Shown: positions 7,591 through 60,333, counted from the stretch's first letter. The stretch: 64,000 bases of DNA from Planctomycetota bacterium (GCA_016220095.1 JACRIJ010000048.1:5296-69295); one strand, 5' to 3'. Translations and numbers: made by a program. The notes: a model not told the origin generated them from the letters alone.

Positions 7591-7628
7591 CGCAGTGCGT
7601 TTCCGCGAAAAGAATGTTCACTCCGGAA

Positions 7629-7847: not shown

Positions 7848-7886
7848 GGCAAATCAAGAATTACCTTGCCCCCAAAGTATGTTTTT

Positions 7887-10444: not shown

Positions 10445-10864
10445 TTAAGAAGCTACAACTTCCTGTACGTTGTTAAGGGCAACCGTTTCATTGCCCACTA
10501 CCAGAGAGATGCTGTCATTGTTTACAACGACTTTTGATACCGCGCCTTTGACCAGATTGCCGCTGTCAGCCGTACCGGTGATTGTCTTTCCGATAAGCGT
10601 GCTTGCGGCCCCGAGTTCCTGGTACTTGTTCATGGTCTTGAGCGTGTCGGTAAGCGCCGATGTGGATTCAAGGTTCTGAAGGTTCGTCAACTGGCCGAGG
10701 AATTCCTTATTGTCAAGCGGTGACATAGGGTCCTGGTTGGACACTTCAGCGATGAGTATCTTCATGAATTCATCGCGCGTGAGCCTTGCCCTTTCGGCGG
10801 TTGAGCCTGTCGCGGCCGAAGTCTGTGTCGTGCTCGTCAAAGAGCTGATTGGGTTGGGCATCAT
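10445..10864 (-). CDS. flgD: Flagellar hook assembly/capping protein FlgD
   Basis: 139 aa. The motif SNQDPMSPLDNKEFLGQLTNLQNLE is typical of the FlgD N-terminal region. Confidence 0.85.
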   Translation of the reverse strand: MMPNPISSLTSTTQTSAATGSTAERARLTRDEFMKILIAEVSNQDPMSPLDNKEFLGQLTNLQNLESTSALTDTLKTMNKYQELGAASTLIGKTITGTADSGNLVKGAVSKVVVNNDSISLVVGNETVALNNVQEVVAS

Positions 10865-10897
10865 TTTTCTATTCTCCTAAAAGTTGGGCGTCCTTGT

Positions 10898-12487
10898 CTA
10901 TACCAGCACGTCAACGAGCTGGTTTGAGGTGCGCGGCCGTGTAATTTCGGGCCATTCCGATTCCGGTTCTTCCTGTTTTGACAGTCCGGAATACTGGGTG
11001 AACGGTTTTTCCTGCTTGTCGCCGAACTGCTGCGGGCCCTGCTGTAAATCCTGGTCAACGGTGACTTCAAAGTTGGAGATGCTGATACCCTGGTTCTCAA
11101 GGTCTTGTTTCAGCGCTTCAAGGTTGTTCAGGATGGCATGGCGCGCCGCGTGGTTTTCGGTTACCATGGTTGCGGACAGCGAATTTTCCTTTACCGCGAG
11201 GTTGATTTTGAGCGTGCCGAGTTGCTGCGGATGCAGGAGCATCTTAATGCGGTTCGTGCCGTTTCTTAAGCCTGCCTTTGTCGCATTGGCGATTTTCTCA
11301 ATCATCTCAGCCTGGTCGGCTCTGGGAACGGATGCTGTCTTTGACAGTTTCGCGAAGAACTGTGACTGGTCGGACTTTCCGATGTTAACCGCGGATTTTG
11401 ATTCGGCTGACTGCATCATGGGTTTCTGCGCGGTATCGCTGTTGGCGAAGCCGTTTGTTGTTTTGGCTGTGGGAGCCACGGCGCCCGCGGTTTGCACGTA
11501 AGACGCTTCAAAGCCGTTGAGCGAAGTCGCGGAATAATTTGTTGTACCAACGGCGTCTGTTTTCGGCGCCGGGGCCTGCACTGCGGGAGCTGATATTTTT
11601 ACGCTGTCAGCCTGTCCGTTTTGCGAATTATCCGTGTTCCAAAGTGACGGCGTCTGCGCCTGTTCTGCCTGCGGGTTGGCGGCGGGTTCCGTTCTTGCCT
11701 GTGCGGCGTTAACTGCATTGGCGTCAGGTTTGCCGGCGTTCTGCACGGGTGCGTCCACTGAAAATGCGTCGGGCGCGGTTTGCGTGTCAATTGTTTTTGC
11801 CTGTTCAACAGTCTGTGCGATGGCCGGTTTGCCCGATGTCATAGGCTTGTATTCCTGTTCAATCGGGTCTGTCGCGGCGTTTCCGTCCGTTGTTTCCGGT
11901 GCGATTGTGTAAACGGGTTTCGTCTGCTGTGCCGGCGTTTCAATTGCCTGCAATTCGCTTGCTTCCGGCAGTGCCTGATTCATCGGCGCGGTGTACGCCA
12001 TCGCATCATTTTGAACTGCCTGCAAAGGTTCCGTTTGAGTCGCCTGCGCAGGTTGCGCCGGCTGTTCTTCCGGCTGGAATTGCGCCGTTTGAGCCGTTTG
12101 AACGGGTTCCTGTTTCAACACGGGCTGGGTGTTCTGTTCCGAAGCCGCGGCTTGATAAGGCTTCTCGTTTACTGCCGTATCAACACTGGCGTTGTTCTTC
12201 AGCGGGATGTATTCGCTTTGCGCGAGCGTATGGTCTTTGGCCTGCGTGAAAACCTGGACTTCGTCCTGTTCCTGTTCCGGCAGTTCGTGTTCCGCGGGTG
12301 CGGAATCTTCATTAGCCGTTGCCTGCGGCACCTGCGCGGGTTCGGGCGTTGCCGTAATCATGCTCATCAGGATATCGCTGAACGAAATGTCGGTAATCTC
12401 CGGGCTGAATTTCTGCGCCACTGCCTGTGGCGCCGGCGACGTTGAATTAATGTTACTAACCGCTTTCATGTTCTCACCCCCTTTCAA
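10898..12487 (-). CDS. fliK: Flagellar hook-length control protein FliK
   Basis: 529 aa. The centre is rich in Q, A and P. The C-terminal Flg_hook domain reads NRIKMLLHPQQLGTLKINLAVKENSLSATMVT. Confidence 0.8.
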   Translation of the reverse strand: MKGGENMKAVSNINSTSPAPQAVAQKFSPEITDISFSDILMSMITATPEPAQVPQATANEDSAPAEHELPEQEQDEVQVFTQAKDHTLAQSEYIPLKNNASVDTAVNEKPYQAAASEQNTQPVLKQEPVQTAQTAQFQPEEQPAQPAQATQTEPLQAVQNDAMAYTAPMNQALPEASELQAIETPAQQTKPVYTIAPETTDGNAATDPIEQEYKPMTSGKPAIAQTVEQAKTIDTQTAPDAFSVDAPVQNAGKPDANAVNAAQARTEPAANPQAEQAQTPSLWNTDNSQNGQADSVKISAPAVQAPAPKTDAVGTTNYSATSLNGFEASYVQTAGAVAPTAKTTNGFANSDTAQKPMMQSAESKSAVNIGKSDQSQFFAKLSKTASVPRADQAEMIEKIANATKAGLRNGTNRIKMLLHPQQLGTLKINLAVKENSLSATMVTENHAARHAILNNLEALKQDLENQGISISNFEVTVDQDLQQGPQQFGDKQEKPFTQYSGLSKQEEPESEWPEITRPRTSNQLVDVLV

Positions 12488-12544
12488 AGGTAGCGGTGTT
12501 TATAATCGGCAGGGATTGATGACAATCAAACCCTGCGTAGATAA

Positions 12545-39783: not shown

Positions 39784-42700
39784 TTATTGTCTCCTGAACA
39801 GCAATACCGCGACGAGTCCGAGGAGCGTTAACAGCATATATATATAAGAAGCCCTATTGTCTTGAGATGCCATTTGGGTTACAAAGCAGGCCGGTTGTGT
39901 GAGTTTACTGCCGGAATCCGAACTGTTGTCGGAAACCTGCGGATTCGGCGTTACCGGGTCAGGGGTTACCACGGGGTCCTGGCCGCCTGTTCCGGGATCC
40001 GGCTGGGTTGTTTTATTTGTAACGACTACCGTAACATAGCTTACGGCGCTGTAGTCAACCGCGTCGCTGACTGTAAGTTTGAACTTATAATTTCCGTTTA
40101 CCGTGGGGGTAAAAGACGGCTCCGGGGTGTCGGCATTGTAGAGTTCAATAACAGGGCCTTCCAACTGCGTCCAGCTGAACAGCAGGCCGTTTGAATAACC
40201 GGCTACTCCGTCCGAGTCGGTATCTGAATCATAGCTTCCCGAGCCATCCAGAGCTACCTGTTTTCCGGGTTTCGTGCTGATGGAATCACCGGCATTGGCG
40301 ACCGGCAGGTTATTTCCCTGCGGATTCAGCACGCTGTCAAAATCGTCTATTATTACAGTCACATTATCGTATGCCTGCACGGAATTCTGGTCTGTAACGG
40401 TCAATTGGAATTCATACAATCCCCTTGCCGGCGGCGCGAATTTAGGCGCTGAACTTGCGGCATCGTCAAGTGTAACGGAAATGCCGGTTTTCTGTTGCCA
40501 TAAGAAAGACAGGGAGCCGGCGCCGGTGCTTGTGTAACCGATAAGCGTTACGACAGGCATGTCATACATGTTAACGATACTGTCGCCGTCGGGATCTGTT
40601 TCAGGCGACACGAATGCCTCGGCAACAGGGAATTCGTCCGCAGTCTGCGGCACAACGTAAATCGTTATCTCGTCCGGCACGCCCCAGGCGGTTCCGTCAT
40701 TGACGGACAATTTATAAATCAAAGTGCCCGTTTCAGCGGCCGTAAAGGACAATATCTTATCCGTGCCAGCCTGAGACCCTGATAACGCGTTTTCTGTCTG
40801 CAGGAGTTCCCATTTATATGTCAAAGCATCGTTGTCCGGGTCAGAGCTGAAGCCTGCGTCAAGCGTAACAGTCTGTCCCAGGGTATATCTTGTGGCTGAA
40901 GTTGTAATCACGGCGGAAGGCATATGATTGGACGGGCTGTTCGCGTAAACTGACACGTAAGAAGTCATGCCAGGCGCATTGTCATCGTCCGTGACGTCCA
41001 GAGAGAAATAATAAACTCCGGTAGTTGCCGGTACAAAGGCGGCTATGGCGCCGTTACTGCTGTTTAATGTCAGGGTTTCGCTTGGGCCGCTGAGGTATTG
41101 CCACAAGTAGGTCTTTATATTGCCATCGTCATCCCTGCTCGTTGAACCGTCAAGGTAAACCGTAGTGCCGGTTACAGCGTTCCTGTCCGGACCCGCGCAA
41201 GCGAGCGGAGGCATATTGGTATCTTGAACCGCTATCGTTACATCAGCCGGCGAAGACAGGTTGATGCCGTCGGAAACAACCAATGAGAAATTGAATACGC
41301 CGCTTAATCCTGTTGTATCAAACACGGGTTTATCTGTCGCAGTGCTGTCAAGATTAGGATGGAACGTCCAGTTATACGTGAGAGCATCGCCGTTAGCGTC
41401 GTAAGAACCGCCGGCGTCAAGGGTAACCAAATCACCTTCGGTCACCGTTGTTGTTTTTTCGTTACTGATAACAGCCACGGGACTGACGTTATTTATTTTA
41501 ATTGTAACGGAATCAGGGGCGCTTGAAATGGCGCCTTCTTTTATTATAAGCTGGAAGACATATTCGCCTGTGGCCTTGCCCGTGAAAGACGGTGTTGAAG
41601 TGGAAGAACTGTTCAACACAACTTCCGGGCCTGACACCTGCGACCACTGGTAAATGATTCCGGTTTTGGTGCCGGTGGTATTGGTGCTTTTTGTGCCGTC
41701 AAGGGTGATAACGCTGGGGTCGGAGGTTTTATCCGAGCCGGCATTTGCGGCCGGGACTGCTCCCGTGTATTCATAACCGTTCGCTAATGTAACTGCGGCC
41801 TGAGACGGGCTTGTTATTACGACATTCACCTTTCCTGTATATCCTGAAGGGGTATAGCCGGTGAATACCGTACTGCTGACGAAAGTTACGCCTGTTGCGG
41901 GACTGCCGCCGAAGGTAATTGTTGAGCCGGATTCAAAATTCGTGCCTGTTATCGTAAAAAAGATATTGCCCGCGACACTGCCGTTATTCGGCGCAATGGA
42001 AGTTATTGTCGGCGGGGAGATATACGTAAACCCGTTCTGGCTGGTATAGCTCTGGCCGTCCGGGTTGGTTATAGTTACGTTAGCCTGGCCGAGCGTACCG
42101 TTCGGCGTTACTGCCGTGACAGCAGACGTGGAAACAACAGTCACGCTTGTTGCGGAACTGCTTCCGATTTTGAGGGTCAAACCGTTCTGGAAATTATATC
42201 CGCTGACCGTTATGCTGGTGCCGCCGCTTGAAACGCCGGAAGCGGGAGATATTAGCGCAATAGCCGGCGCTGTGGACAGGTCGTAAGAAAAACCCGCTGT
42301 CAGGGTAACGGCCTGCGAATCCGGATTAGTAACGGTCACATTTACGGTAGAGGCGACCGCCACGGCCGGCGTTAAGCAGGTTATGGTTGACGAATTAACG
42401 ACAGTTACGCTTGTGGCATTATTCGGTCCTATTTTAACGATAAGGCCGTTTGAAAAATTATTGCCCGAGATAGTCAGAGACGTACCGCCTGCAATCGGGC
42501 CGTGCGTAGGCGATACTGATGTTATCTGCGGAGACGGCAGGGCATTATATGTAAAACCGTTGGTCAGAAGGCCGTACTGCGTATCGGTATTAACGGCTTT
42601 AATCGTAACGGTTCCTGCGTTTCCGGCAGGTGAGAAACAGGTGATAGTGTTTGAATCCACACGCGTAACATTAGAAGCCGCGTTAGCGCCGAAAAATACG

Positions 42701-45700
42701 GCCACGCCGCTATTGAAGTTGCTTCCGGATATCGTGCACGAAGTGCCGCCTGTCACAAAGCCGTTATCAGGGCTGACAGACGTTATCTGCGGCACGGGCA
42801 GTGAATTATACGTATATCCGTTGAACAAAATATAATATTGCGCGTCGGTATTGACCACTTTAATTGAAACTGCACCGGCGTTTCCGGCAGGGGAAGAACA
42901 TGTTATGGTATTTGCATCCACGCGTACAACGCTCGCGGCCGCGTTAGCGCCGAAAAATACGGTTACGCCGCTGTTGAAATTGTTTCCCGCGATGGTGCAC
43001 GAGGTGCCGCCTGCCATAAGGCCGTTATCCGGGGTGATGGAAGTTATCTGCGGCGCCGGCGGCGCGTTGTATGTAAAGCCGTTAAACAGCAGGTCATATT
43101 GCGTGTCCGGATTGACGACCTTGACGGGAACTGCGCCGATACTGCCTGCCGGCGAGGAGCACGTAATGGAGGTGGAATCCACCCATGTTACAAGCAATGC
43201 CGGATTGGCGCCGAAGAACACGGTTGCGCCGTTTTTGAAATCCGTGCCCGTGATAGTGCATGGCGTATTTCCTGCGACATCGCCGTTATCAGGCGCTATG
43301 GAAATTATGTTCGGCATGGCTACGGGCTGGAACGTAAAACCGTTCGTAAGGGTTCCGGCAAGAGTGGAGGGATTGGTAACAACGACATTCACTCCTCCTA
43401 TGGTGCCGGACGGCGTGGTGCACGTAATAGACGTGCTGTTTACAACAGTTACGCCGGTAGCGCTGTTCGCGCCGATTTTCACCGTCGCGCCGGAGACGAA
43501 ATTAGTGCCTGTGATTGTCACAGAATCGCCGCCGTCGGAAGTGCCCGTATTCGGGGCTATTGATGAAACCGTGGGGCTGTTGGCGTAAACAAAGCCGTTA
43601 GTAAGAATATTATACTGTGTATCGGGATTTACGACTTTTATGTCATATGTGCCGGCGCTTTTTGCAGGCGCGGTAAAGGTCAGTGAAGAAGAACTGACGA
43701 ATGTCACGCCGGAGATGGAAGTAGTCCCGAAGAAAACGGAACAGCCGGAGACAAAATTCGTGCCTGAAATGGCGACAGAAGCGCCGCCGGCGATATCGGA
43801 TGCGGACGGAGCCGCAGAAGTTACGGAAGGCGCCGGGTCTGTGAAATACGTGAAACCGTTTGTCAATGACGCAGACTGCGGACCGGGAACTGTTACGGTA
43901 ACGGTCGCGTTTCCCGCGGCTCCTGAAGGCGCAGTGCAGGTTATTGTCAAAGCATTAACGACAATGATATTTGTCGCGAGGACTCCGCCGAAAGTGACCG
44001 TCGTGGCGGGATTGTCAATGAAATTAGTTCCCGTTACGGTAACGTTGGTTCCGCCGGTTGACGGTCCCTGGTTTGGCGAAACCGAGACAACCGTTATAGG
44101 AGTAGAAACCGTATATCTCCAGAAAGAGTAATTCGTATTACTGCTTCCGGCTATGGCAAAAATTGAGCCGTTGTAGTAGTTCAAGGATGCGCCGTCGTAG
44201 AAATAACCGAGATCTGCCGCAGACGCGTCGTCCCAAGTATTCAGGCTTATGGTGTACCTGTAATACCCCAGAGAACCGTTGCCGGCGACGGCAAAAATGT
44301 AATCGCCTGTTCCGGTGCATGCAAGCGAACCGCCTATGTTGACAGTACCCGGGAGATTAGCGCGTGCCAGCCAGGAATCTCCGGAAATAGAATATCTCCA
44401 GAACTCATTTACTCCGGAGCCGCGCAATACATAAATATAATCGCCTGTGCCGGGATATGCCATATCCGCCCCGTTTCCAGGAACATTGGTTATCGGAGTC
44501 CGGACGTCCCAGCTATTGGTTGCGATGGTATATCTCCAGAAATCATTAACACTTCCCTGGAGCAAATAAACATAAGTGCCTGTCGCGGTCATTGCCGCGC
44601 CGGTATTCACTAATCCCGGAACCGGTGCCATGGAAGTCCACGTGTTAAGGGATATTGAATACCTGTAGAAATCTGTTGTATTAGAACAGCGGGCGGCGTA
44701 AAGATAATCGCCTGTGCCCGGATAAGCTATTGCCCCTGCGGTAGCAATAGCCGCGGGCGTGCTTGCAAGGAATTTCCACGTATTGGTGCTGATATCATAG
44801 GCATTGAAATAAGAAGTGCTGGCTCCCCTCAGCGCATAGATGGAAGAACCCGCAATCTCGGAATCGCCGCCTGTGCCAGCCGTGAAATTTGTCTGGGAAA
44901 TGGAATTCCAGCTTAATCTTGAAGTGGAGAATCTCCATAATTCCTGAGTATTGGCGGCCCTGAAGGCATAGATGTAATCTGAATTCCCTATGGATACGAG
45001 GGTGGCATTGGTGCTTATTGTATTGGGAGGATACGATGTAGCCTGCCAATTCTGATTAATCAGGGAATATCTCCAGAAAGATTGATTGCCATTCCCCTGG
45101 AAGGCATACAGGTATTCGCTGTCGGAATTATGGAATTGCAAATAGCCGCCTGCGACAACATTGCCCGGCGCGGATGCTAATACCGTCCAGGTGTTGCCGG
45201 AAATGGAATATCTCCAGAAATCAGCCGTGGTACTGCCGTGGAAAGCGTAGATATAATCCCCTGAGCCGGGGTACGCGAGATAGCCGCCGTCAGTTACGGT
45301 AGCAGGCGCAGATGCCGGCGTGGTATTGTCCCATGTATTGGTGCCCGTGTCATAGGTCATAAATTCCGATTGGGTATTGCCCTGGAAGAAATACAGTTTA
45401 GTGCCCACGCGAACGGCGGAGGCGCCCGCGCTTAAATTTACCGGCGCATCCGCGTAAGAGGCGTCATTCCAGGAATTGCCTGAAATGGAATATCCCCAGA
45501 AAGTAGCCGTGTTGTTGGCTCTCGCGCAGTATATGATATCGCCGGACCCCGGATACAAAAGAACGGAGCCGGTGGATATTGTTCCCAATGTAACGGCAAG
45601 GGTCGAGTGCGTATTTGTAGAAATAATATATTTAGAAAAAGTTGTTGAATTGTTGCCATTCGTATAATATATCGTATCATTGCCGTCCCATTGAGCCCTT

Positions 45701-48700
45701 CCGCCCGTGCTCATCACCGCAGGCAAGAGAGCGGGTTCGGTCCAGACATTTGCCTGGATGTATCTGAAAGCGGCCCTGAGTGTGGCGGTTTGCACGTCGG
45801 GATTAGTAACCGTTACAGAAGCGGCCCATGCGGTGCCGGCGGGCGTCAGGCAGGTCAGCGTTTGCGAATTCACAAACGCAACGCTGGTCGCGGATGTGCC
45901 GCCGATTGTAACTGTTGCGCCGTTTACGAAATTATAGCCTTTGATTGTAACGGACGATTTTCCTGCGGACACGCCTTCTTCCGGAGTAATGGATGTTACA
46001 TAAGGTTTACTTACGAATGTCACGGCATTAGAAGAGGTATAAGTCAGGGAACCGTTACTGACCGTAATATCCGACAGTCCCAGAACGCCTGCGGGAACGA
46101 CGACCTCCAACCTCGTTGAATTTATAAAAGTAACGCTTGTGGCATTTATGGCGCCAAATTTGACCGTTGTAGTCGGGGTGAAATTAGAACCGTAGATTAC
46201 AATAGTCATTCCTCCGTTTACGGGAATGGTTGTCGGGAAGACCGTTGTAATTGAAGGAGTAAGGCCTTCAAAAAGAAGCCTGTATCTCGCAAAATACAGG
46301 CCGCCGCCTCCATTTATAGCGTACAAGTAATTATCATTTCCGTATGTCAAAAATCCGCCGGTTGAATAGGTGTAAGGGGCCGATGAAAGCGAAACCCAGG
46401 ACTTTGTAGTCTTGTAATATCCCCAAAACCCGGTCGTTGTATTGCCTTGAAGCGCATATATTACATCGCCATATCCGGGCCATGCCATGTCAAAACCGGA
46501 CGTCTCAGCAAATGGAACCGATGACTCTATAAGCCAGGTATTTGAAGCAATGTCATACGAATAGAAACCGGTCTGGGAATTACCAACCGACAAATATATT
46601 TTTCCATTGCTGTAACACAAAGCGCCGCCGTCGTTTACCACAAATGGCGTGGTTGCGAGGGATTCCCACTTGTTCTGGGATATGACATATCTCCAGAAAT
46701 ATAGTGTTCCGCCGCCGCCCGTCGCGTAGATGTAATCGCCGGTTCCGGGATAAACCGAATCCGCTCCGTAGCCGACAATGGTTGGCGCATCAGTCAAAGA
46801 AGTCCAAACGTTCGTTGTCATGTTGAATTTTGCAAATGAACTACTGCCATAACCTCTTAGGGCATATAAATAAGTAGAATCCACCTGCGTTAAGGATGAT
46901 CCATAATAAGTTCCCCAGGGCGTGGCGGTCATGGTAGTTGCGGTGTTGGCTGTGATATCATATTTATAAAAATTGGTTCCACCCTGCCCGTACATTACGT
47001 AAATCTTTTTATCGGTTGTTCCGCATATATTGCCATAGCTCATAGAACTGGGAATCGGCGTAAGCTTGGACCATTTCTGGCTCGCGAGATAATACTTGAA
47101 AACATATTGAGTGCTCTGAGCCGGGATCAGCATAATGGCATTCAGGCTTGCGATGTAGGCCATTTTGCCGCATTGATATACGCCTACAGGCGTGGCGGTC
47201 AAACTTGTCCAGCTGTTGCCTGTAATATTATAACGGGCAAAACCCGTAGTGTTGGAGCCCTGCGTACAGTAAATATACCCGTCGTTACCGTATGCCTGAT
47301 AAGCGCCGTAATAAGTTGAAAACGGCATATTTGCCATTTGCAGCCAGGAGTTTCCGGAGATGGAATACCTGTAATAGGTATTCGTATTATTGTGAGTCAC
47401 ATATATAAAATCGCCTGAACCCGGATAGTTGCCGCTTGCGCCGTAATTAAAAGTTGCGGTGAAATTAGTCATTGCCAGCCAGCTGTTGCCGGAAATCGAA
47501 TACCTTAGAAACGTATTCGTGTTGCCTCCCGGGGCGCAATAGATAAAGTCGCCCGAACCGGGATAAACCAGAAAACCTCCCGTAGTTACGTTACTGGTGC
47601 AGGCAGTCATTGTGTCCCAGGTATTTGGTCCGATATTGTAACGGTAAAATGTACTGGTGCCGCCGCCTCTTGTCAGATACAAGGCGGTTGTTGAAGGCAC
47701 ATATACCATATCAGCCCCGATGCCGCCTGTTGTTGTTACGGGCGTAAGTAATGTATAGGCATTTGAGGTAAACGAATATTTATAGAAGGCTGAAGAACTT
47801 CCAGGATAAGGCCAGAAATACGTGAAATCCCCTGTGCCGGGATAGCAGAGCGTTAAACCCTGATAGGCATTTACGGGAAGCAGGGCCATCTCGTTCCATG
47901 AATTCACGGCTTCAAATTCAAAATAATTCGTCAATGTCGCGTTCTGTAAATCCGGATTGGCGACGGTCAGGCTGGCAATCGCAAGGCCGGACGGCGCGGT
48001 GCAGGTTATCGTAAAGGGGTCAACTACCAGTACTCCCGTGGCGGAAACGCCTCCGACAGATACGGTTGCCCCGCTCACAAAATTTGCCCCGGTTATGGTA
48101 ATCGGAGTACCGCCGCTTGCCACCAAAATCTGCGGCGTTGCGGAAGTCAAATACGGTTTGCTATCGTAAGTGAAGCCGCCGACAAGGGTGGACGTCTTGG
48201 TATTAGGATTCGTTATTACCACATTGGCGGCGCCTGCTGAACCGGCCGGAATCGTCACAGTCAGGCTGATAGAACTGTTGAAAACTATGTTGGTCGCGGC
48301 CTGGCCTCCAAATGTGAGCGTAAGCCCGGGATAAAAACCGGTACCTGTAATAGACACCGGACTGTTGCCGGAAGTAGGCCCTGTTGATGGATTAATCAGC
48401 GATATTGACGGCGTTGCGCCTGAATCCAAGACGCAGTATTTCGTGATGTACGGGGTGTTATTGCCGACTAATGAATAAATATAATCATTTACTCTCGCAA
48501 AATCAGTAACCTGATAGTATTTGAAAGGCGTATTGGTCAGCGTTGTCCATGCATTAGTGGTTGTGGAATAATACCACCAGGCGTGATTTGTCGTGCTTGA
48601 CGGGCCGTAATTTGCACCGGTGGCATAAATTTTATCGCCAAACCCGGCATAAACCATTTGAGGGTAATACCCGAAAGTTGACGGGGCATTTGCCAATTGC

Positions 48701-51700
48701 GTCCATGCATTCAGGGAAATAGAATACTTATAAAAAGTCTGCTGGCCGTTTGAACCGAACATGTACATGAAATCGCCCGTGCCGGGATAATGCAGGCCGC
48801 CTCCGTAGTTAAGAGTGGCGGATAAAGAGGACATTACAGACCATGAATTTGAAGTAATATCATATTTATAGAAATCGCTGGAACTGCTGGCCCGCGCGCA
48901 ATATATGGCGTTTGCGGACGATACGTAAGCCAATCCGGCGCCGTAAGACGCGGTGTTTGGAAGCGCTGTCATCGTGTCCCAGGTATTTGTGGAAATAGTA
49001 TATCTGTAAAATGTTGTTGTCGCCGTTCCGCGCATCAAATAAATCTTATCCGTGCCGGCCAGCACCATATCCGCGCCGTAATTCACGGTGGCAGGTATGG
49101 CGGCTAAGGTTGCCCAGGTATCGGTGGCAGTGGTGTATTTCCAGAAATTCGTAGTGCTTGCGCCGCCGCATACGTATAAATTGGCTGAACCGTCATACAA
49201 TATATTTCCGCCTTCAGCTATTGATGCCGGGGCCGGGGCCACATCAACCCAGTTGTTTCTGGAAACGGAATACCTTACAAAATCCCTCTGGTAATATGCG
49301 GGCATGGAGTACAGATAATCGGAATTGGAAATGGAAAGCAATGTCCCGCCTTCCCAGTTATACGACATTGGCTGAGGTTGCATGGTTTCCCACGAATTAA
49401 GCCCCATGGAATAACGATAGAAGTACGCGCCGCTGCTAGTGGCATTTCCGCGTAATAGATAAAAGTAATTTGTCCCGTACGCCCATGCAAGCGAACCGCC
49501 GTACCGGATGGTGTTGGGCGTTGATGGCAACGTCTCCCACGTATTGCCGGCAATGGAATATCTCCAGAAATCCGTAGTATTGGCCCCGCGCGTGGCATAC
49601 AGGTAATCGCCCTGGCCGGGCCATACCAGGTCGCATCCGCCTTCCTGCTCGTTCGGGGTGCTGGCCAATTGGGCCCATGTATTGCCGGAAATTGAATATC
49701 TCAACAAGAGCTTTCTGTTTGCCGAAATACTGGCGTGGGTGCCTAATGTCGCGTAAATGTAATCGCCGCCTAACCATGCCATTGAACATCCGTAGTCCGC
49801 CAGGTATGTCGCGTTAAGAACTGTCGTATCCTGGGGGTCAACATCGTTCCACGTATCAGTAGATATCTTGTATCTCCAGAAGATGCCGGTCTGATTGCCC
49901 CTGAAGACATAGATATAGTCACCGTTCGCGAAACACATGCTTGAAGCGCGGTATAATAACGTTCCGCCGGGCGTGGTCGCGCAAACCGTCCATACGTTTG
50001 TTGACAGGCTGTATTTCCATAAAGTCGTAGTATTGTCTCCACGCAAGGCATAAATAGTATCTGCGCCGTCATAAGCCATTGCCGAGCCGTCATTAAACCA
50101 ATTGGGCGCGCAGGCAGGCGTATCCCACCCGTCCACGCTTACATATCTGAAAGCAGTTTTTAAAGAACCGTTGAAAGGGCCGGGATTGGTTACGGTTAGA
50201 TCCACGGACCAGGTATTGCCGGTTCCGGCCGGTGTCGCGCAGGTAATGCTCGTTGAGCTGACCCTGACGACGTTAGTGGCGGAATTCGCCCCGAATTTAA
50301 CCGTCACTCCAACCGCAAAATTCTCGCCTGTTATGGTAGCGTTAGTGCCGCCGGTATAAGAACCCGAATATGGCGATACTGATTTTACGATAGGATCGGT
50401 CTTGTAGGTAAACCCTCCTGTAAGCGTATTGGAAAGAGGGCCTGGGTTGGTAACAACCACATTCGCGGCCCCGGCTACTCCGGCCGGTGCGGCCGCGCTG
50501 ATTAAACCGGTATCCAGGAAAGCAACGTTCACAGCCGCAACGCCGCCGATAGTAACCGTTGCAGTCGGATAAAAATTCTTGCCGATTATCTTAACCGTGG
50601 TCCCGCCGGCCGTGCCGCCTTCATTAGGGAATATGGCTTCAGCCGTTGGAGTTGAACTTTCAAAAACCTTGTATCTGAAGAAAGATGCCGTGGTATTGCC
50701 GGCAAAACAATAGATATAATCGTTGGCGAATGTTAACGATATTCCGACATTATTAAACGTAAATGGCGAAGAACCCATTGTTGCCCATGTGTTGGTCGTC
50801 ATATTGTAACGATAGAATTCGGCCGTATTCTGGCCTCTCGTGGCATAAAGATAATTGCCGTATTTAGGATATATGAGCGCTCCACCGGACCCTATTGTGG
50901 CCGGAGTGGAAGCGAGAACGCTCCAAGTATTGCCGGAAATGGAATATCTCCAGAATTCGGAAGTGGCCGCGCCGCGCAGGGCATAGATATAATCTCCGGT
51001 GCCCGGATACGAAAGCGATGCGCCGGCCTCAACTACATTAGGCGTAAGCGCAAGCTGAGACCATGAATTTCCGGAAATGGAATATCTCCAGAAACTTGAG
51101 AAACTGCCGCCGCGAAAGGCGTAAATGAAATCGCCGGTTCCTGGATATAACAAAAATCCGCCGGTAGTTACCGTTCCGGGCGTTGAAGTCATGGTGGACC
51201 ATGAATTTGAGCCGACCGTGTATTTCCAGAAATTAGATGTGGAATTGCCGGCCATTACAAAAAGATTGGTGCCGTCGGAACAGATAGCGCCGCCTGCGCC
51301 GATAGTCCCGGTCGGCTGGGCCAGGCCAGTATTCCATGTGCCCGCGGACGTGTCATAGCGCCAGAAATCCGCCGTAGTACTGCCTCTAAGCGCATAAATA
51401 TAATTTCCCGAGCCGTAATACGACAATGAACCGCCTGCAGTGATTGTATTGGGCGCGGCAGGAATTGCACCCCACCTGTTATTGCTGATGGAATACCTTA
51501 AAACAGTATAACCCCAGTTTCCCTGATTAAAATAGAACCAATCAGTGCCGGGAACGTACACTATATCTGCGCCGCCTGCTGTGGATATCGGCACATTTGC
51601 CATATCGGACCAGGTTGTGGTGGAAATCCGATATTTTTTGAAACCATTGCTCGGCCAATTCGTACAATAAGCGTAAACATAATCGGGGTCAGACCCGAAT

Positions 51701-52416
51701 ATAAGGTCGCCTTCCGTTGTTACCGCTGTAGGCGAAACAGTGAGAGCCCCCCAGGAATTTCCGGAAATGGAATATCTCCAGAAATCCGTGGTATTGGCGC
51801 CGCGCAAGGCATAGATGTAATCGCCGGAACCCGGATACGCCAGAGCGCCGCCGGTATTGACAGCGCCGAGAGCAACCGCCTGCGCGCCTGACCATGTGTT
51901 ACTGCCAATATCATAATAGTAAAACGCGGTGCCATTGCCTATAAGGCAGTATATTCTGTTATTGGAACTGACATAAACAACATCGCTTCCGGCACTGACT
52001 GCCACGGGTATGGCCGCGCACGGAGACCATGCATTGCCGGATATGGAGTATTTTTGAAATCCTGTGGCGCCATCCCCCTGCGTCGCGTAAATAAAATCTC
52101 CACCGCCCCAGCACATAGAACCGTAACTGGGAATGCCCCAGGGACTGCCGGTAACCGAGGTGTAAGTTCTACTGCTGATAGTGTACTTGTAAAATTGAGA
52201 ACCGCCGCCGCCTTGCGTTATAAATAATGTGTCCGCTCCGGCCGCGGTTATTTGTGAACCGTAGTACGTTTGCAGAGGACAGGACGGCGGTTCTTCCCAC
52301 CCTACCTGCGCGTAAAGCTCTGCGGGAATAAAAAAGGCCATTGCAAAAATAAATAATGCAATAACCCATTTGTTTGTAATCGCCGCTGTTTTAAGATTTT
52401 TTGTGCGCATAAACAT
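39784..52416 (-). CDS. Giant cell-surface protein (4210 aa) built from beta-propeller blade repeats, many IPT/TIG domains, PKD-like domains and a C-terminal membrane anchor
   Basis: A signal peptide is followed by about 50-aa blade repeats (GxGDYIYAxRGxxxxxFWRYSISGNSW). More than 20 IPT/TIG units are present (e.g. PNEGGTAGGTTVKIIGKNFYPTATVTIGG). Five PKD-like units follow (ANAGSDKT...YQWSQVSGP). The C-terminus is a hydrophobic helix plus RRQ. Confidence 0.85.
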   Translation of the reverse strand: MFMRTKNLKTAAITNKWVIALFIFAMAFFIPAELYAQVGWEEPPSCPLQTYYGSQITAAGADTLFITQGGGGSQFYKYTISSRTYTSVTGSPWGIPSYGSMCWGGGDFIYATQGDGATGFQKYSISGNAWSPCAAIPVAVSAGSDVVYVSSNNRIYCLIGNGTAFYYYDIGSNTWSGAQAVALGAVNTGGALAYPGSGDYIYALRGANTTDFWRYSISGNSWGALTVSPTAVTTEGDLIFGSDPDYVYAYCTNWPSNGFKKYRISTTTWSDMANVPISTAGGADIVYVPGTDWFYFNQGNWGYTVLRYSISNNRWGAIPAAPNTITAGGSLSYYGSGNYIYALRGSTTADFWRYDTSAGTWNTGLAQPTGTIGAGGAICSDGTNLFVMAGNSTSNFWKYTVGSNSWSTMTSTPGTVTTGGFLLYPGTGDFIYAFRGGSFSSFWRYSISGNSWSQLALTPNVVEAGASLSYPGTGDYIYALRGAATSEFWRYSISGNTWSVLASTPATIGSGGALIYPKYGNYLYATRGQNTAEFYRYNMTTNTWATMGSSPFTFNNVGISLTFANDYIYCFAGNTTASFFRYKVFESSTPTAEAIFPNEGGTAGGTTVKIIGKNFYPTATVTIGGVAAVNVAFLDTGLISAAAPAGVAGAANVVVTNPGPLSNTLTGGFTYKTDPIVKSVSPYSGSYTGGTNATITGENFAVGVTVKFGANSATNVVRVSSTSITCATPAGTGNTWSVDLTVTNPGPFNGSLKTAFRYVSVDGWDTPACAPNWFNDGSAMAYDGADTIYALRGDNTTTLWKYSLSTNVWTVCATTPGGTLLYRASSMCFANGDYIYVFRGNQTGIFWRYKISTDTWNDVDPQDTTVLNATYLADYGCSMAWLGGDYIYATLGTHASISANRKLLLRYSISGNTWAQLASTPNEQEGGCDLVWPGQGDYLYATRGANTTDFWRYSIAGNTWETLPSTPNTIRYGGSLAWAYGTNYFYLLRGNATSSGAYFYRYSMGLNSWETMQPQPMSYNWEGGTLLSISNSDYLYSMPAYYQRDFVRYSVSRNNWVDVAPAPASIAEGGNILYDGSANLYVCGGASTTNFWKYTTATDTWATLAAIPATVNYGADMVLAGTDKIYLMRGTATTTFYRYTISTNTWDTMTALPNTASYGAGLAYVSSANAIYCARASSSSDFYKYDITSNSWSVMSSLSATLNYGGGLHYPGTGDFMYMFGSNGQQTFYKYSISLNAWTQLANAPSTFGYYPQMVYAGFGDKIYATGANYGPSSTTNHAWWYYSTTTNAWTTLTNTPFKYYQVTDFARVNDYIYSLVGNNTPYITKYCVLDSGATPSISLINPSTGPTSGNSPVSITGTGFYPGLTLTFGGQAATNIVFNSSISLTVTIPAGSAGAANVVITNPNTKTSTLVGGFTYDSKPYLTSATPQILVASGGTPITITGANFVSGATVSVGGVSATGVLVVDPFTITCTAPSGLAIASLTVANPDLQNATLTNYFEFEAVNSWNEMALLPVNAYQGLTLCYPGTGDFTYFWPYPGSSSAFYKYSFTSNAYTLLTPVTTTGGIGADMVYVPSTTALYLTRGGGTSTFYRYNIGPNTWDTMTACTSNVTTGGFLVYPGSGDFIYCAPGGNTNTFLRYSISGNSWLAMTNFTATFNYGASGNYPGSGDFIYVTHNNTNTYYRYSISGNSWLQMANMPFSTYYGAYQAYGNDGYIYCTQGSNTTGFARYNITGNSWTSLTATPVGVYQCGKMAYIASLNAIMLIPAQSTQYVFKYYLASQKWSKLTPIPSSMSYGNICGTTDKKIYVMYGQGGTNFYKYDITANTATTMTATPWGTYYGSSLTQVDSTYLYALRGYGSSSFAKFNMTTNVWTSLTDAPTIVGYGADSVYPGTGDYIYATGGGGTLYFWRYVISQNKWESLATTPFVVNDGGALCYSNGKIYLSVGNSQTGFYSYDIASNTWLIESSVPFAETSGFDMAWPGYGDVIYALQGNTTTGFWGYYKTTKSWVSLSSAPYTYSTGGFLTYGNDNYLYAINGGGGLYFARYRLLFEGLTPSITTVFPTTIPVNGGMTIVIYGSNFTPTTTVKFGAINATSVTFINSTRLEVVVPAGVLGLSDITVSNGSLTYTSSNAVTFVSKPYVTSITPEEGVSAGKSSVTIKGYNFVNGATVTIGGTSATSVAFVNSQTLTCLTPAGTAWAASVTVTNPDVQTATLRAAFRYIQANVWTEPALLPAVMSTGGRAQWDGNDTIYYTNGNNSTTFSKYIISTNTHSTLAVTLGTISTGSVLLYPGSGDIIYCARANNTATFWGYSISGNSWNDASYADAPVNLSAGASAVRVGTKLYFFQGNTQSEFMTYDTGTNTWDNTTPASAPATVTDGGYLAYPGSGDYIYAFHGSTTADFWRYSISGNTWTVLASAPGNVVAGGYLQFHNSDSEYLYAFQGNGNQSFWRYSLINQNWQATSYPPNTISTNATLVSIGNSDYIYAFRAANTQELWRFSTSRLSWNSISQTNFTAGTGGDSEIAGSSIYALRGASTSYFNAYDISTNTWKFLASTPAAIATAGAIAYPGTGDYLYAARCSNTTDFYRYSISLNTWTSMAPVPGLVNTGAAMTATGTYVYLLQGSVNDFWRYTIATNSWDVRTPITNVPGNGADMAYPGTGDYIYVLRGSGVNEFWRYSISGDSWLARANLPGTVNIGGSLACTGTGDYIFAVAGNGSLGYYRYTISLNTWDDASAADLGYFYDGASLNYYNGSIFAIAGSSNTNYSFWRYTVSTPITVVSVSPNQGPSTGGTNVTVTGTNFIDNPATTVTFGGVLATNIIVVNALTITCTAPSGAAGNATVTVTVPGPQSASLTNGFTYFTDPAPSVTSAAPSASDIAGGASVAISGTNFVSGCSVFFGTTSISGVTFVSSSSLTFTAPAKSAGTYDIKVVNPDTQYNILTNGFVYANSPTVSSIAPNTGTSDGGDSVTITGTNFVSGATVKIGANSATGVTVVNSTSITCTTPSGTIGGVNVVVTNPSTLAGTLTNGFTFQPVAMPNIISIAPDNGDVAGNTPCTITGTDFKNGATVFFGANPALLVTWVDSTSITCSSPAGSIGAVPVKVVNPDTQYDLLFNGFTYNAPPAPQITSITPDNGLMAGGTSCTIAGNNFNSGVTVFFGANAAASVVRVDANTITCSSPAGNAGAVSIKVVNTDAQYYILFNGYTYNSLPVPQITSVSPDNGFVTGGTSCTISGSNFNSGVAVFFGANAASNVTRVDSNTITCFSPAGNAGTVTIKAVNTDTQYGLLTNGFTYNALPSPQITSVSPTHGPIAGGTSLTISGNNFSNGLIVKIGPNNATSVTVVNSSTITCLTPAVAVASTVNVTVTNPDSQAVTLTAGFSYDLSTAPAIALISPASGVSSGGTSITVSGYNFQNGLTLKIGSSSATSVTVVSTSAVTAVTPNGTLGQANVTITNPDGQSYTSQNGFTYISPPTITSIAPNNGSVAGNIFFTITGTNFESGSTITFGGSPATGVTFVSSTVFTGYTPSGYTGKVNVVITSPSQAAVTLANGYEYTGAVPAANAGSDKTSDPSVITLDGTKSTNTTGTKTGIIYQWSQVSGPEVVLNSSSTSTPSFTGKATGEYVFQLIIKEGAISSAPDSVTIKINNVSPVAVISNEKTTTVTEGDLVTLDAGGSYDANGDALTYNWTFHPNLDSTATDKPVFDTTGLSGVFNFSLVVSDGINLSSPADVTIAVQDTNMPPLACAGPDRNAVTGTTVYLDGSTSRDDDGNIKTYLWQYLSGPSETLTLNSSNGAIAAFVPATTGVYYFSLDVTDDDNAPGMTSYVSVYANSPSNHMPSAVITTSATRYTLGQTVTLDAGFSSDPDNDALTYKWELLQTENALSGSQAGTDKILSFTAAETGTLIYKLSVNDGTAWGVPDEITIYVVPQTADEFPVAEAFVSPETDPDGDSIVNMYDMPVVTLIGYTSTGAGSLSFLWQQKTGISVTLDDAASSAPKFAPPARGLYEFQLTVTDQNSVQAYDNVTVIIDDFDSVLNPQGNNLPVANAGDSISTKPGKQVALDGSGSYDSDTDSDGVAGYSNGLLFSWTQLEGPVIELYNADTPEPSFTPTVNGNYKFKLTVSDAVDYSAVSYVTVVVTNKTTQPDPGTGGQDPVVTPDPVTPNPQVSDNSSDSGSKLTQPACFVTQMASQDNRASYIYMLLTLLGLVAVLLFRRQ

Positions 52417-56407: not shown

Positions 56408-56745
56408 TAAATATTGAAGAATTGAATAAGCGGACAGTGAATGACGGCGAAATCAACAGGGGCTCTAAGAGACTTTAAAGAGACTGACGACGAGCCCTGA
56501 ACAACAGATTGAACAGATTAAACGGATTGACGACTACGACTAAACGACTGAACAACCGGACGACGGGATGAAACCATATAAAGAAGAAGGCAGTAAGAAG
56601 GCAGGCTGACGCACCGTTCGTCGTCCGTCGTTCAACTGTCGCCTGTTCACATATCACCTTTCGTCGTCGTCCCTCGCTACTCGTTACTGGCTACTCGCTA
56701 CTTCGTCCATCCGTCCTTCATTCTTCATTCTTCATACTTCGTAAG

Positions 56746-56819
<74 letters not shown>

Positions 56820-57066
56820 AAAATCTGCTCTGCAGATTTTGCAGAAGCAAATGCAGTTAATTTTCAACTGTTAAACGTATTTTAATCAACAATAGATAAA
56901 AACGCAAGAAAAAGAATGTTCTAATAGTAACCCGTCAGTAAACGGTGGCATTAAAGGGCGGTAGTGGCCCAGCCATTTATGGCCGGGGTGTAGAAAACTG
57001 AAAAACATGGAGGGCATTCATGCCCTTAATATAACGCTATAAATAGCCTGGTTTGTTGACCTGTTT

Positions 57067-57621
57067 TTATTGTAAGAGTAGCTTCATTTCACGCAAGGCA
57101 CGGCTAACTTCCGCTTCATCTATATTGCCATATTGGCTTTGCATAAACTCCCGGTAAAGTTGGATGCCCGGAGCATCAATATCTTTGAAATATTCCATAA
57201 CTATTTCAACGCACTGCTGTTTTAACCCTTCTTCTTTACCAAATTGCGACCAAAATAGTTTGTTAAAATTGCCATTCTGAATATTGTGCCTGACGATTTT
57301 TATGCTATCGGCAGAATGCACCTGGGCTCTTTCTCTATTTTCCTTAGGCTTGTCAGGCCTTCTAAGGTTTTTGTATCTGTCTTTAATTGCCAGAAGCTTC
57401 AGCATTAAAACAGCATTAGGTTTAGCAAAACGAATTTTAACTTTGGCAGGCCTGCCATCCGGCAAATTACCTTCTATGAATGCGTAATCAAATTGCTGTA
57501 ACACAATCTCTGCGCCAACACACTGAAATGCATGGATTCCTTTTTGAATATCTACTCTGACAGGATCCTTAGGTCTTTTTTCCTTATCGGACGCCATAAA
57601 TTCAATTCGCATCAGTTCCAT
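57067..57621 (-). pseudogene. C-terminal part of an AbiEii/DUF1814-like nucleotidyltransferase toxin, out of frame with its N-terminal part
   Basis: It continues the 57612-57833 ORF after a +1 shift inside an A7 (plus-strand T7) tract at 57633-57639. The combined length is about 257 aa. Confidence 0.5.
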
Positions 57622-57833
57622 GCTGTCAGGAATTTTTTTAAGACTTCAGCAATTGAGGTTAATGATTTACGCAAAGAAATTACATCCAACAGAAAATCAA
57701 AGTCTTTGGAATAACGTGGATTATTGACATTGAATGTCATTGCTTGAGCGCCAGATAAAACAAAATCCTCCGCGGCACTGCCCAATTCAGTCATCAATTC
57801 TAATAAATAGGTTTTTTGCGGTTCTTTAATCAT
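57612..57833 (-). CDS. N-terminal part of an AbiEii/DUF1814-like nucleotidyltransferase
   Basis: It carries the NTase core FVLSGAQAMTFNVNNPRYSKDFDFLLD (GS...DxD). It overlaps the upstream gene by 8 nt. Confidence 0.5.
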   Translation of the reverse strand: MIKEPQKTYLLELMTELGSAAEDFVLSGAQAMTFNVNNPRYSKDFDFLLDVISLRKSLTSIAEVLKKFLTAWN

Positions 57834-58932
57834 TTTTCATCCATCTCTTTTCAATTATGTTGGTTAAAAGATATTCCGCTTGCTTTGCATCACGTCCTCC
57901 CTTGGCATAACAGTCCAGATATGCCTGAATATTAGAAACTGTCTTTATGCTGTCAAATCTATTGGAATACATCGCCACGCCTTTATCATAAGGACTAAAG
58001 AAAAGAAAATCAGGGCCTTTCCCTTTTTCATCCGTTGCGGCAAATTTACGCAATTCACCGTATGCGCCAGGATTCATTACATATACATCAATCCTGTCAA
58101 TATTAACAAATGGCGCTGTAAAATTAGCCGCCGCGGAGCCAGTAAGAACAAAATCCGCATCAGGAAACTTCAGCATCAGCCCGTTTAATGACGTTTTTAA
58201 GTCGAAGTCAAATGAATTTTTGCAGAGCCAGGAACTCCGGAGCATCCATTTGTATCGTTCCTGGTATTTTTCCGCCCATTTGAAAAGAAGCCTGTTGGGC
58301 TCAGGAATCGCGATTTTCATTCCATCTCTGCGTACCAATAATGCCTCATCCAGAGAATCAATGGTCTTTGATACAGAGGAAAGACTGATTTGAAAATATT
58401 TATCCCTGCCCTGTTCAAGCGATTCTTTTAGTAATTCCTGATATATATCACCTACTAACCATTTCCGGCCCGGATTATTAAGCAATACACGAAGAACTCT
58501 TGAAGAAACTCCGCTAAATGGATTACGCAGTAATCGAGGCGTTTTAAAGATATTAGGACGGCCTAAACGTTGAATTAATACTTTTCCGGGTATTCCGATA
58601 GAAATATTCCCGCACATATCTATGAAGCCGACATTGTTTTCCTGGCAATACTTTTGGCTTTCCAGCGGCAGGTATGGGCATACTAAAATATATAGATTCG
58701 TTGAATTACTTAAATTAAACTTTATAAGCCAGGGGGCGATTTCTTTTAATATTTTAGGAGTAATTTGGGTTTTTATTTCACCATATAGTAATATTTTTGT
58801 TCCTGAAAAATCCAAACAAATTGCCACATCAGGTCGAGCACTTATGTTCGGGCTGTTCCGCCATGATTCGGGTTCAATACTTATAACTTTAATGCCAGAC
58901 AATCCATTAAACGGCTCGCCTTTATTAAGCAA
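57826..58932 (-). CDS. Putative AbiEi-like antitoxin/regulator with a PD-(D/E)xK-like N-terminal domain, a wHTH and a C-terminal GS...DxD segment
   Basis: 368 aa. The N-terminal domain reads PDVAICLDFSG...LYGEIKTQ. The central wHTH-like segment is SSRVLRVLLNNPGRKWLVGDIYQEL. The C-terminal segment is FVLTGSAAANFTAPFVNIDRIDVYV. Confidence 0.4.
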   Translation of the reverse strand: MLNKGEPFNGLSGIKVISIEPESWRNSPNISARPDVAICLDFSGTKILLYGEIKTQITPKILKEIAPWLIKFNLSNSTNLYILVCPYLPLESQKYCQENNVGFIDMCGNISIGIPGKVLIQRLGRPNIFKTPRLLRNPFSGVSSRVLRVLLNNPGRKWLVGDIYQELLKESLEQGRDKYFQISLSSVSKTIDSLDEALLVRRDGMKIAIPEPNRLLFKWAEKYQERYKWMLRSSWLCKNSFDFDLKTSLNGLMLKFPDADFVLTGSAAANFTAPFVNIDRIDVYVMNPGAYGELRKFAATDEKGKGPDFLFFSPYDKGVAMYSNRFDSIKTVSNIQAYLDCYAKGGRDAKQAEYLLTNIIEKRWMKND

Positions 58933-59100
58933 TTCTACAAAACGGATTTAAGATTTAAGACTTACGATGTAAGATTTTTTCGGCGTATCTTCATAAAATT
59001 TTAATTCTTAAATCCAAAATCTTAAATCTTCAGGCCTGCCCCCCTGCGTTTTTGACCCCGTTTTCAGACATCCCGATTTTTTGACCGAAGTAGAAAATTC

Positions 59101-59128
59101 TTGACAACATTTTTGACTTTGGTATAAT
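59101..59128 (+). promoter_or_regulatory. Sigma-70 promoter of the ATPase gene
   Basis: The sequence is TTGACA, a 16-bp spacer and TATAAT. An RBS aggag precedes the ATG at 59155. Confidence 0.6.
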
Positions 59129-59154
59129 ATTCCGGATATAGGAGATTTCTTGAA

Positions 59155-60333
59155 ATGCTTAAAAGATACCTGGAGAAACGCATCGTTGAAGACCTCAGGG
59201 AAAAAATGGTGTTTATTGCCGGACCAAGGCAGGTTGGCAAGACAACGCTCGCTCTGGAGATAGGCAAACTGCATTTTTATGACAAAACATCGTATCTGAA
59301 TTGGGATGACAGGGGAGACAGGAAAAAGATGCTGGAAGAAACGTTCAACCCTGAACACGAATTCATCGTGTATGATGAAATACATAAATACAGACATTGG
59401 AAAAATTATCTTAAAGGTATTTACGACAAGAACAAATCAAGGTTCAAAATAGCCGTTACCGGAAGTGCGCGGCTTGATATATTCCGTCGGGGCGGGGATT
59501 CCCTTATTGGCAAGTACAGGCTTTTCCGTCTGCACCCATTGTCCTTGAATGAACTGATTGGCAGACATTCTGATACGGCGCCGTTTGAACAACTCAGGTT
59601 TTCGCCCGTAGTCAGGGAGGCTGCTGACGCGTTTGCGCGTCTCTTTAAGTTCGGTGGTTTTCCTGAAATTTGTCTTAAGGGCAGTGAGCGAGCGTTAAGA
59701 TTATGGCATAACGAACGCGTTGACAGGCTAATTAAAGGTGAAATCAGGGATTTGGAGAACATCAGGGACCTCTCTGCCCTGCAGGTTATGACCGAACTTA
59801 TGCCGGACAAGGTCGGGTCGCTTTTCTCGTTGAACTCGCTCAGCGAAGATCTCAGCGTCGCGCATAAAACCGCCATGCTATGGCTTGACATCCTGGAAAG
59901 ATTCTATTTCTCCTACAGAATTCGTTCGTTCAGAGGCAGTAAAATTAAATCACTGCGAAAAGCCCCGAAGGTTTATTTGTGGGATTGGTCGGATATCAAG
60001 AACGAAGCCATAAGGTTTGAAAACAATATTGCGTCGCATCTGCTGAAATTTTGTCATTACCTCAACGACGCCGAGGGTTACAAAGCGGAACTTCATTTTC
60101 TCCGTGATATTGACGGCCGGAAGGTGGATTTCCTTGTCGCAGTGGATGGAAAGCCGTGGTTCTGCGTGGAAACGAAGACGCAATACAAAACTATACCCTC
60201 CGGACTAAGATATTTCGTTTCGCGGTTGAATATTCCGTATGCCTATCAGGTGGTGAGAGAGGCGGGCGTGGATGAACTGAAAGACGGCATAAGGACAATA
60301 AGCGCGGATAAATTTCTGACAGCCCTTTGTTAA
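59155..60333 (+). CDS. AAA_14/DUF4143-family ATPase
   Basis: 392 aa with a Walker A motif GPRQVGKTT. The architecture is typical of the widespread ATPase plus DUF4143 family. Confidence 0.75.
   Translation: MLKRYLEKRIVEDLREKMVFIAGPRQVGKTTLALEIGKLHFYDKTSYLNWDDRGDRKKMLEETFNPEHEFIVYDEIHKYRHWKNYLKGIYDKNKSRFKIAVTGSARLDIFRRGGDSLIGKYRLFRLHPLSLNELIGRHSDTAPFEQLRFSPVVREAADAFARLFKFGGFPEICLKGSERALRLWHNERVDRLIKGEIRDLENIRDLSALQVMTELMPDKVGSLFSLNSLSEDLSVAHKTAMLWLDILERFYFSYRIRSFRGSKIKSLRKAPKVYLWDWSDIKNEAIRFENNIASHLLKFCHYLNDAEGYKAELHFLRDIDGRKVDFLVAVDGKPWFCVETKTQYKTIPSGLRYFVSRLNIPYAYQVVREAGVDELKDGIRTISADKFLTALC

Follow-up and report, generated by a model that had tools for sequence, protein, structure and literature searches.

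The AbiE systems of Lactococcus and Streptococcus agalactiae and the MenAT systems of M. tuberculosis are bicistronic, with an upstream gene for a DNA-binding partner overlapping a downstream gene for a DUF1814 nucleotidyltransferase (NTase) (PMC3985639; PMC7450476; PMC11375011; bioRxiv 10.64898/2026.01.19.700257). Autorepression of AbiE through inverted repeats in the promoter is established, and a second, uncharacterised branch of the AbiE superfamily consists of COG4861-COG4849 gene pairs (Dy et al., 2014, PMC3985639). Here we analyze a gene pair with this layout at positions 57,067 to 58,932 of a 64-kb stretch of DNA (64,000 nt, hereafter the window) from a Planctomycetota bacterium (GCA_016220095.1, JACRIJ010000048.1:5296-69295), where an antitoxin-like gene is followed by an NTase toxin gene split between two open reading frames (ORFs). 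We put the probability at close to 0.9 that the locus represents a degenerate toxin-antitoxin module of the AbiE type, in which the toxin gene was pseudogenised by a 52-nt deletion beside an intact antitoxin-like partner.

The junction between the two toxin ORFs

All three genes of the locus are on the minus strand, and all coordinates are window positions. The intact partner gene (58932..57826) starts at a TTG and encodes 368 amino acids (aa). It overlaps by 8 nt a 73-aa ORF (57833..57612), the 5′ fragment of the predicted toxin pseudogene, which includes FVLSGAQAMTFNV...RYSKDFDFLLD, the AbiEii/DUF1814 NTase core. In the 3′ fragment (57639..57067), homology to orthologue residue 83 onward begins at 57639; the 184-aa ORF listed for this fragment runs from an ATG at 57621 (57621..57067), while NCBI annotates a C-terminal fragment of 181 aa (P0001, HZA48_04695), which would fit a start at the ATG at 57612. 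The frames meet at a run of seven A (A7; T7 on the plus strand) at 57633-57639, and only 57645-57612 is open in both. The original prediction had described the overlapping 368-aa gene, the 73-aa ORF with its AbiEii/DUF1814 core and the A7 run at the frame junction, all of which we confirmed; it had placed the downstream ORF in the +1 frame, which is actually −1 (= +2) relative to the 73-aa ORF. A TGATG at 57614-57610 (minus strand) combines the stop of the 73-aa ORF with an ATG in the frame of the downstream fragment, a layout seen in stop-start coupling.

A protein search with the toxin returned the window's own fragment (P0001) and 26 relatives, mostly of 270-292 aa, the closest of which are 69-74% identical. 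Adding one A at the A7 run would produce a 255-aa fusion of the two ORFs (the A8 fusion). When this fusion was aligned with 14 intact relatives (alignment A1), 17 residues found between VLK[KR] and IP[DNG]S in all 14, such as LKYSPDPKALRFQFTKD, were absent from the window. When the DNA of the window toxin gene was aligned with the three closest orthologous genes (L001-L003), the window showed one gap of 52 columns, which coincides precisely with the A7 run. Elsewhere the sequences align collinearly at 72-74% identity, interrupted only by two 3-nt gaps close to the 3′ end. Since 52 nt is 17 codons plus 1 nt, the gap explains the missing residues and the change of frame together. Translated searches (tblastn) gave the same picture: orthologue residues 1-67/68 aligned to frame −3 (57833..57630) and residues 83-272 to frame −2 (57639..57073), while residues 69-82 had no match anywhere in the window. 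The deleted segment comprises codons 68-84 plus one base. These comparisons support the view that both ORFs derive from a single ancestral toxin gene, and they favor the decaying toxin that the original prediction had listed as one of several alternatives.

The orthologues also point to how the A7 run could have arisen. No homopolymer is present at either end of the deleted segment in the aligned orthologues. In L003, however, the deletion ends coincide with direct repeats, AAGGCAATT and AAGGAAATT, which are 9 nt long, identical at 8/9 positions and exactly 52 nt apart; thus, the A7TT at the window junction is probably the surviving copy of such a repeat. We infer that the ancestor of the window sequence had similar A-rich repeats, formed by Lys codons at each end. 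Probably through replication slippage, or through recombination, between these ~9-nt A-rich direct repeats, 52 nt apart, one copy and the spacer would then have been removed, leaving AAAAAAATT. As a collection of 5.8 billion protein clusters contained no relative above ~74% identity, the ancestral toxin allele is not recoverable. Judged by the orthologue alignments, the A7 tract is a product of the deletion and not an on/off switch. The locus thus carries a caution, in that a homopolymer at a frame junction resembled a phase-variation or recoding switch and comparison with orthologues shows the scar of a larger deletion.

Fifty alignment columns are invariant in the 14 orthologues, and five of these (L, Y, F, F, K) lie within the deleted segment. 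Since 44 of the 45 invariant residues outside the deletion persist in the window, the event is probably recent. In the AlphaFold2 (AF2) model of the intact orthologue P0003 (predicted local distance difference test, pLDDT, 93.1; predicted template modelling score, pTM, 0.91), residues 80-84 (NFQFT) form a strand, followed by a short turn and a second strand at residues 91-99 (MRVEFMASD) that contains a nearly invariant Glu. From the listed secondary structure, we read these two strands as a hairpin of the NTase sheet.

The frameshift halts translation after 73 aa, and the deletion splits catalytic motifs I and II from motif III. The original prediction held that one inserted A would restore a toxin of roughly 257 aa, the size of AbiEii. 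Although the Pfam AbiEii match in the 255-aa A8 fusion spans residues 19-151, across the junction, the fusion still lacks the 17 residues, including the five invariant ones and the core strand. Intact relatives are 270-292 aa or ~384 aa long, and so 255 aa is not full size. The complete NTase core is found in no intact ORF at the locus, as residues 68-84 are gone and the frame is shifted, and a tblastn search of the window for a second intact toxin copy found none. Conservation and the orthologue model together indicate that the toxin gene is a pseudogene and has probably lost its function.

Membership of the toxin in the AbiEii family was assessed with profiles, fold comparison and motifs. 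Matches to Pfam AbiEii (PF08843) are real but weak: with a cut-off of 22.5 bits, the 73-aa ORF reaches 24.2 and the A8 fusion 27.7. The PADLOC AbiEii models also match weakly (1.3e-4). Among the relatives, 19 of 22 match PF08843 (best E 1.6e-9), and toxin relatives match both PF08843 and PF12281 (NTP_transf_8). Foldseek with the P0003 model placed the DUF1814 protein JHP933 (4O8S, 4OK0) on top, with a probability of 0.99-1.00; MenT3/4 were absent among the top fold matches. A toxin-family profile found no match among PDB sequences, and NCBIfam had no match for P0003.

Motifs I and II of AbiEii have the form hG[G/S]-x15-DhD with a family-specific Arg (PMC3985639). Both are present on the 73-aa fragment as VLSG28A...R40YSKD44FD46F, with 15 residues from G28 to D44, and G28, R40, D44 and D46 are invariant in the toxin family. 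The 3′ fragment carries motif III, which in the COG4849 type is KLxAaxxR (PMC3985639), as K146-L-L-A149-I-K-D-R153; the Lys and Ala are invariant and the Arg nearly so, while the "a" position is I or M (KLLA[M/I]xDR), not aromatic. A candidate for motif IV (the acidic +DxxD pentad), identified by a spacing argument only, reads HDREE in most relatives; the window has ENRER, with a D-to-N change also present in the intact P0002 and P0005.

The partner protein and the fate of both genes across the family

The partner belongs to a family with more than 220 matches, typically of 370-380 aa and mostly unannotated. Its AF2 model (pLDDT 93.4) has three domains, the central one a winged helix-turn-helix (wHTH). 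The N-terminal domain is PD-(D/E)xK nuclease-like, with D35 invariant and E52 and K54 nearly invariant, and its fold matches include EndoMS/NucS, XisH and restriction enzymes. The C-terminal domain is NTase-like or AbiEi_2-like; a conserved TGSAAA...DRID motif in this domain (alignment A3) is reminiscent of hG[GS]...DxD. The only Pfam match of the window protein is to AbiEi_2, below threshold (E = 0.067, 14 bits vs a cut-off of 21), whereas 17 of 55 family members match this profile (PF09952; best E 1.6e-5). Neither PADLOC nor NCBIfam had a match for the partner. The two-domain AbiEi architecture with an N-terminal wHTH (COG5340 type) was not found in the partner, and the three-domain architecture, apparently undescribed, may merit experimental study. 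Taken with the PF08843 matches of the toxin relatives, the weak AbiEi_2 similarity upholds the original assignment of the locus as an AbiE-like pair of antitoxin and NTase toxin.

The start of the window partner differs from that of many relatives. In 32 of 55, the protein begins with 8 residues (MTEQEIIE-like) that are missing from the TTG-started window protein. Homology extends 5 codons upstream of the TTG, as far as an in-frame TAA that occupies the place of ancestral codon 3 (58930-58950, minus strand), which indicates that the 5′ end of the partner gene has been remodelled.

Gene order is conserved in L001-L005 and in most of a set of 80 species-representative genome loci with a partner homologue (L011-L090): the toxin gene follows the partner gene, either overlapping it slightly or starting a few bases beyond it. 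We scored both genes in these 80 loci. Toxin homology was found downstream of the partner in 77 of 79 evaluable loci. In 74 of the 80 loci the partner matched cleanly and in one piece over its full length; of the other six, four show N-terminal-extension effects, one lies at a contig end and one has a C-terminal frameshift. For the toxin, 58 loci were intact, 3 ran off a contig end, 1 was not evaluable and 18 were disrupted or missing. Of these 18, 8 are frameshifted, 2 contain an in-frame stop, 7 are truncated, with the last homologous residue at 26, 40, 53, 54, 83, 84 and 175, and 1 lacks toxin homology. Thus, toxins were disrupted in 18/76 evaluable loci (~24%) vs 1-4/79 (1-5%) for partners (Fisher p 1e-5 to 1e-3), with the partner, the longer gene, serving as an internal control for error rate. 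Two of the toxin frameshifts fall in C5-C7 runs and are possible sequencing errors; excluding them gave p = 0.003 and left the conclusion unchanged. In this COG4861/COG4849-like branch, toxin loss is far commoner than partner loss.

Two further groups of loci show toxins broken elsewhere. At L007/L008, where the partner is the distant homologue P0122 (at least 8 contigs), the toxin is interrupted at codon 57 by a TAG, beyond which homology goes on without a change of frame, and at L009/L010 the toxin P0012 (4 contigs) is cut by a TAA at codon 212. Several toxin breakpoints lie at residues ~50-67, just past the DxD motif. Intact toxins encoded next to such partners come in two sizes, ~277-292 aa and ~379-392 aa, the longer having a C-terminal extension. 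One intact pair (L005, Acidobacteriaceae) lies amid IS66 and mutator-type transposases, a ThiF/Multi_ubiq pair and Peptidase_M78-HTH genes (7343-9260, 10502-12498), surroundings that look like a defence-island or mobile-element context.

By homology, the ancestral operon would have encoded an antitoxin-like DNA-binding partner and an overlapping ~272-aa DUF1814 NTase toxin. As for AbiEii and MenT, the intact NTase would add nucleotides to tRNA acceptor ends, block translation and arrest growth unless neutralised (PMC7450476; PMC10435456; PMC11375011; bioRxiv 10.64898/2026.01.19.700257). The partner may both repress the operon and neutralise the toxin, possibly through induced auto-phosphorylation of the toxin. 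The 52-bp deletion removed five invariant residues and a β-strand of the NTase core, shifted the frame and parted motifs I and II from motif III, and the intact partner would persist as an orphan, probably still expressed from its autoregulated promoter.

That the partner is intact in ~95% or more of loci while about a quarter of species have a broken toxin could also mean that the partner has a role independent of the toxin, such as DNA-targeting defence, regulation or anti-addiction immunity against incoming AbiE-like modules, and that the window represents a functional "solo partner" state. We regard this further step as unlikely.

Other explanations of the junction

A different reading of the A7 run, listed first in the original prediction, is that it forms a phase-variable or recoding switch, with slippage to A8, transcriptional slippage or −1 frameshifting giving regulated, stochastic or low-level synthesis of the 255-aa toxin. 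The frames are indeed arranged such that a −1 slip, like one additional A, joins the two ORFs as VLKK-IPDS, the A_AAA_AAA heptamer lies in the zero-frame register (TTA AAA AAA) with the downstream ORF in the −1 frame, and in the fusion the Pfam AbiEii match runs through the junction. Yet the tract is absent from orthologues and stems from the deletion, and the product of either slip would lack the 17 residues, five of them invariant, and the core strand. Such runs are also common, with 35 A/T runs of at least 7 across the 64-kb window, such that A7 at the junction is not unusual, and hypermutable A/T tracts are generally longer than A7. We found no stimulatory RNA structure downstream (z = −1.27; 22 of 200 shuffles fold as well), and no Shine-Dalgarno-like element is visible upstream of the heptamer. 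An independent contig from the Logan assemblies reads straight through the junction with A7. Finally, the orthologue comparison that the original prediction proposed revealed relatives in which stops, frameshifts or truncations at unrelated positions have inactivated the toxin, the outcome it had named beforehand as refuting a switch. With this evidence, we find a switch hardly credible. No more credible is a sequencing or assembly artefact, in which the real genome has an intact toxin and the consensus is wrong at the junction. The window comes from a metagenome-assembled genome (HZA48_04695/04705), a kind of assembly whose consensus can collapse repeats, and if both assemblies share one read set, as the matching sequence suggests, a collapse between 9-nt repeats would be possible in both. 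However, the lesion is a 52-nt deletion and not the 1-nt homopolymer miscount that had been suggested, and the Logan assembly was built independently: its contig L006 (run SRR12113407, 2,097 bp) matches window 56928-59024 with 100% identity, A7 junction included, encodes the exact 368-aa partner and yields the same 368-, 73- and 184-aa gene calls.

The fragments might also still function, either because the 73-aa and 181-aa pieces reassemble after UGAUG-coupled translation or because one of them has a new role as decoy or regulator. The overlap of the 73-aa stop with the in-frame ATG of the second ORF would suit coupling, and the family-invariant residues are almost fully kept outside the deletion. 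Neither piece, however, can supply the missing strand and the five invariant residues; the ATG is an ancestral Met codon (the conserved M in MRIEF) and the TGA a by-product of the frameshift, so the TGATG overlap is most simply and most likely due to chance; and high residue retention is expected for a recent lesion. We therefore consider functional fragments very unlikely. Several points nonetheless weigh against a decayed module. The retention of 44/45 residues is equally expected under continued selection on the fragments, and loss of function was deduced from conservation and the model of orthologue P0003. The junction happens to form a perfect −1 slippery heptamer, A_AAA_AAA, at which traces of the 255-aa fusion could form. 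As the comparison rests on two assemblies, a minority undeleted or A8 allele may exist in the population. Lastly, the ancestral repeats are a reconstruction, since the closest orthologues are only 69-74% identical.

Genomic surroundings and comparison with known systems

Immediately upstream of the partner gene, imperfect inverted repeats (58945-58978 and 58995-59028; 34-nt arms, 79% complementary) form a cluster built of TCTTAAATC and GATTTAAGA units. Inside the repeats is a σ70-like promoter match (TTAAGA-16-TAAAAT, 9/12; 59025..58998, minus strand), although consensus matches of this kind number 9 in the region vs 7.3 expected. The repeats at 58945-59028 are a candidate autoregulatory operator. 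Inverted repeats are also present upstream of the L001, L004 and L005 partners, but their sequences are unrelated, and no shared operator sequence was found among them. A terminator-like hairpin with a T-run (57026..57011, minus strand) lies 40 nt past the toxin stop codon.

The pair and its flanks (56800-59400) have a G+C content of 0.37-0.41 vs a window mean of 0.48, and a tRNA-Arg(CCT) gene (56745-56819, minus strand) is located ~250 nt downstream of the toxin pseudogene. The low G+C and the adjoining tRNA gene suggest that the pair was horizontally acquired. The divergent neighbor on the other side encodes an AAA_14 + DUF4143 ATPase (59155-60333, plus strand), for which NCBIfam had no match, and is preceded by a perfect σ70 consensus (TTGACA-16-TATAAT with TG, 59101-59128). 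Because L009 and L010 also carry a divergent AAA ATPase, we considered this protein as a conserved third component and rejected it, as the two ATPases are unrelated (E = 0.78) and the neighbors at other loci differ. Elsewhere in the window, a 4,210-aa ORF (39784-52416, minus strand) contains 15 IPT/TIG domains, Kelch β-propellers and PKD domains and is presumably a large surface or adhesin-like protein.

Compared with AbiE and MenAT, the locus shares the bicistronic layout, in which the gene for a DNA-binding partner precedes and overlaps that for a DUF1814 NTase, and also motif I, motif II with the family-specific Arg and x15 spacing, the Lys/Arg of motif III and inverted repeats in the promoter region. 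It differs in that the toxin is distantly related (Pfam 24-29 bits) and, in the window, a pseudogene. Unlike AbiEi of the COG5340 type, the partner carries an additional PD-(D/E)xK-like domain at its N terminus, and its C-terminal domain is NTase-like. Because of toxin motif III, the double PF08843/PF12281 matches and the AbiEi_2 similarity of the partner, the sequence points to the COG4861-COG4849 branch as the one to which the module belongs. As in that branch, the toxin relatives match PF08843 and PF12281 and carry motif III of the KLxAaxxR type, partner relatives match AbiEi_2 and contain a wHTH, and the pairing is tight; the non-aromatic "a" position of motif III sets the family apart from COG4849. 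To our knowledge, no member of the COG4861-COG4849 branch has been tested experimentally.

Programmed −1 frameshifting is exemplified by dnaX and by the A_AAA_AAG/A sites of the IS3 family. Like phase-variable genes and genes with −1 frameshifts, the locus has a homopolymer at a frame junction and a heptamer in the correct register. Unlike these genes, its tract is unconserved, no stimulatory element accompanies it and the recoded product would lack a conserved core segment.

Orphan antitoxins and decayed toxin genes are a general phenomenon in chromosomal toxin-antitoxin loci. As at such loci, the toxin here appears inactivated and the antitoxin kept, and lesions across the family are scattered and of different kinds. 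The window differs from typical orphan-antitoxin loci only in that its deletion left a homopolymer in slippery register, and it adds one decayed member to the AbiE/DUF1814 toxin-antitoxin superfamily.

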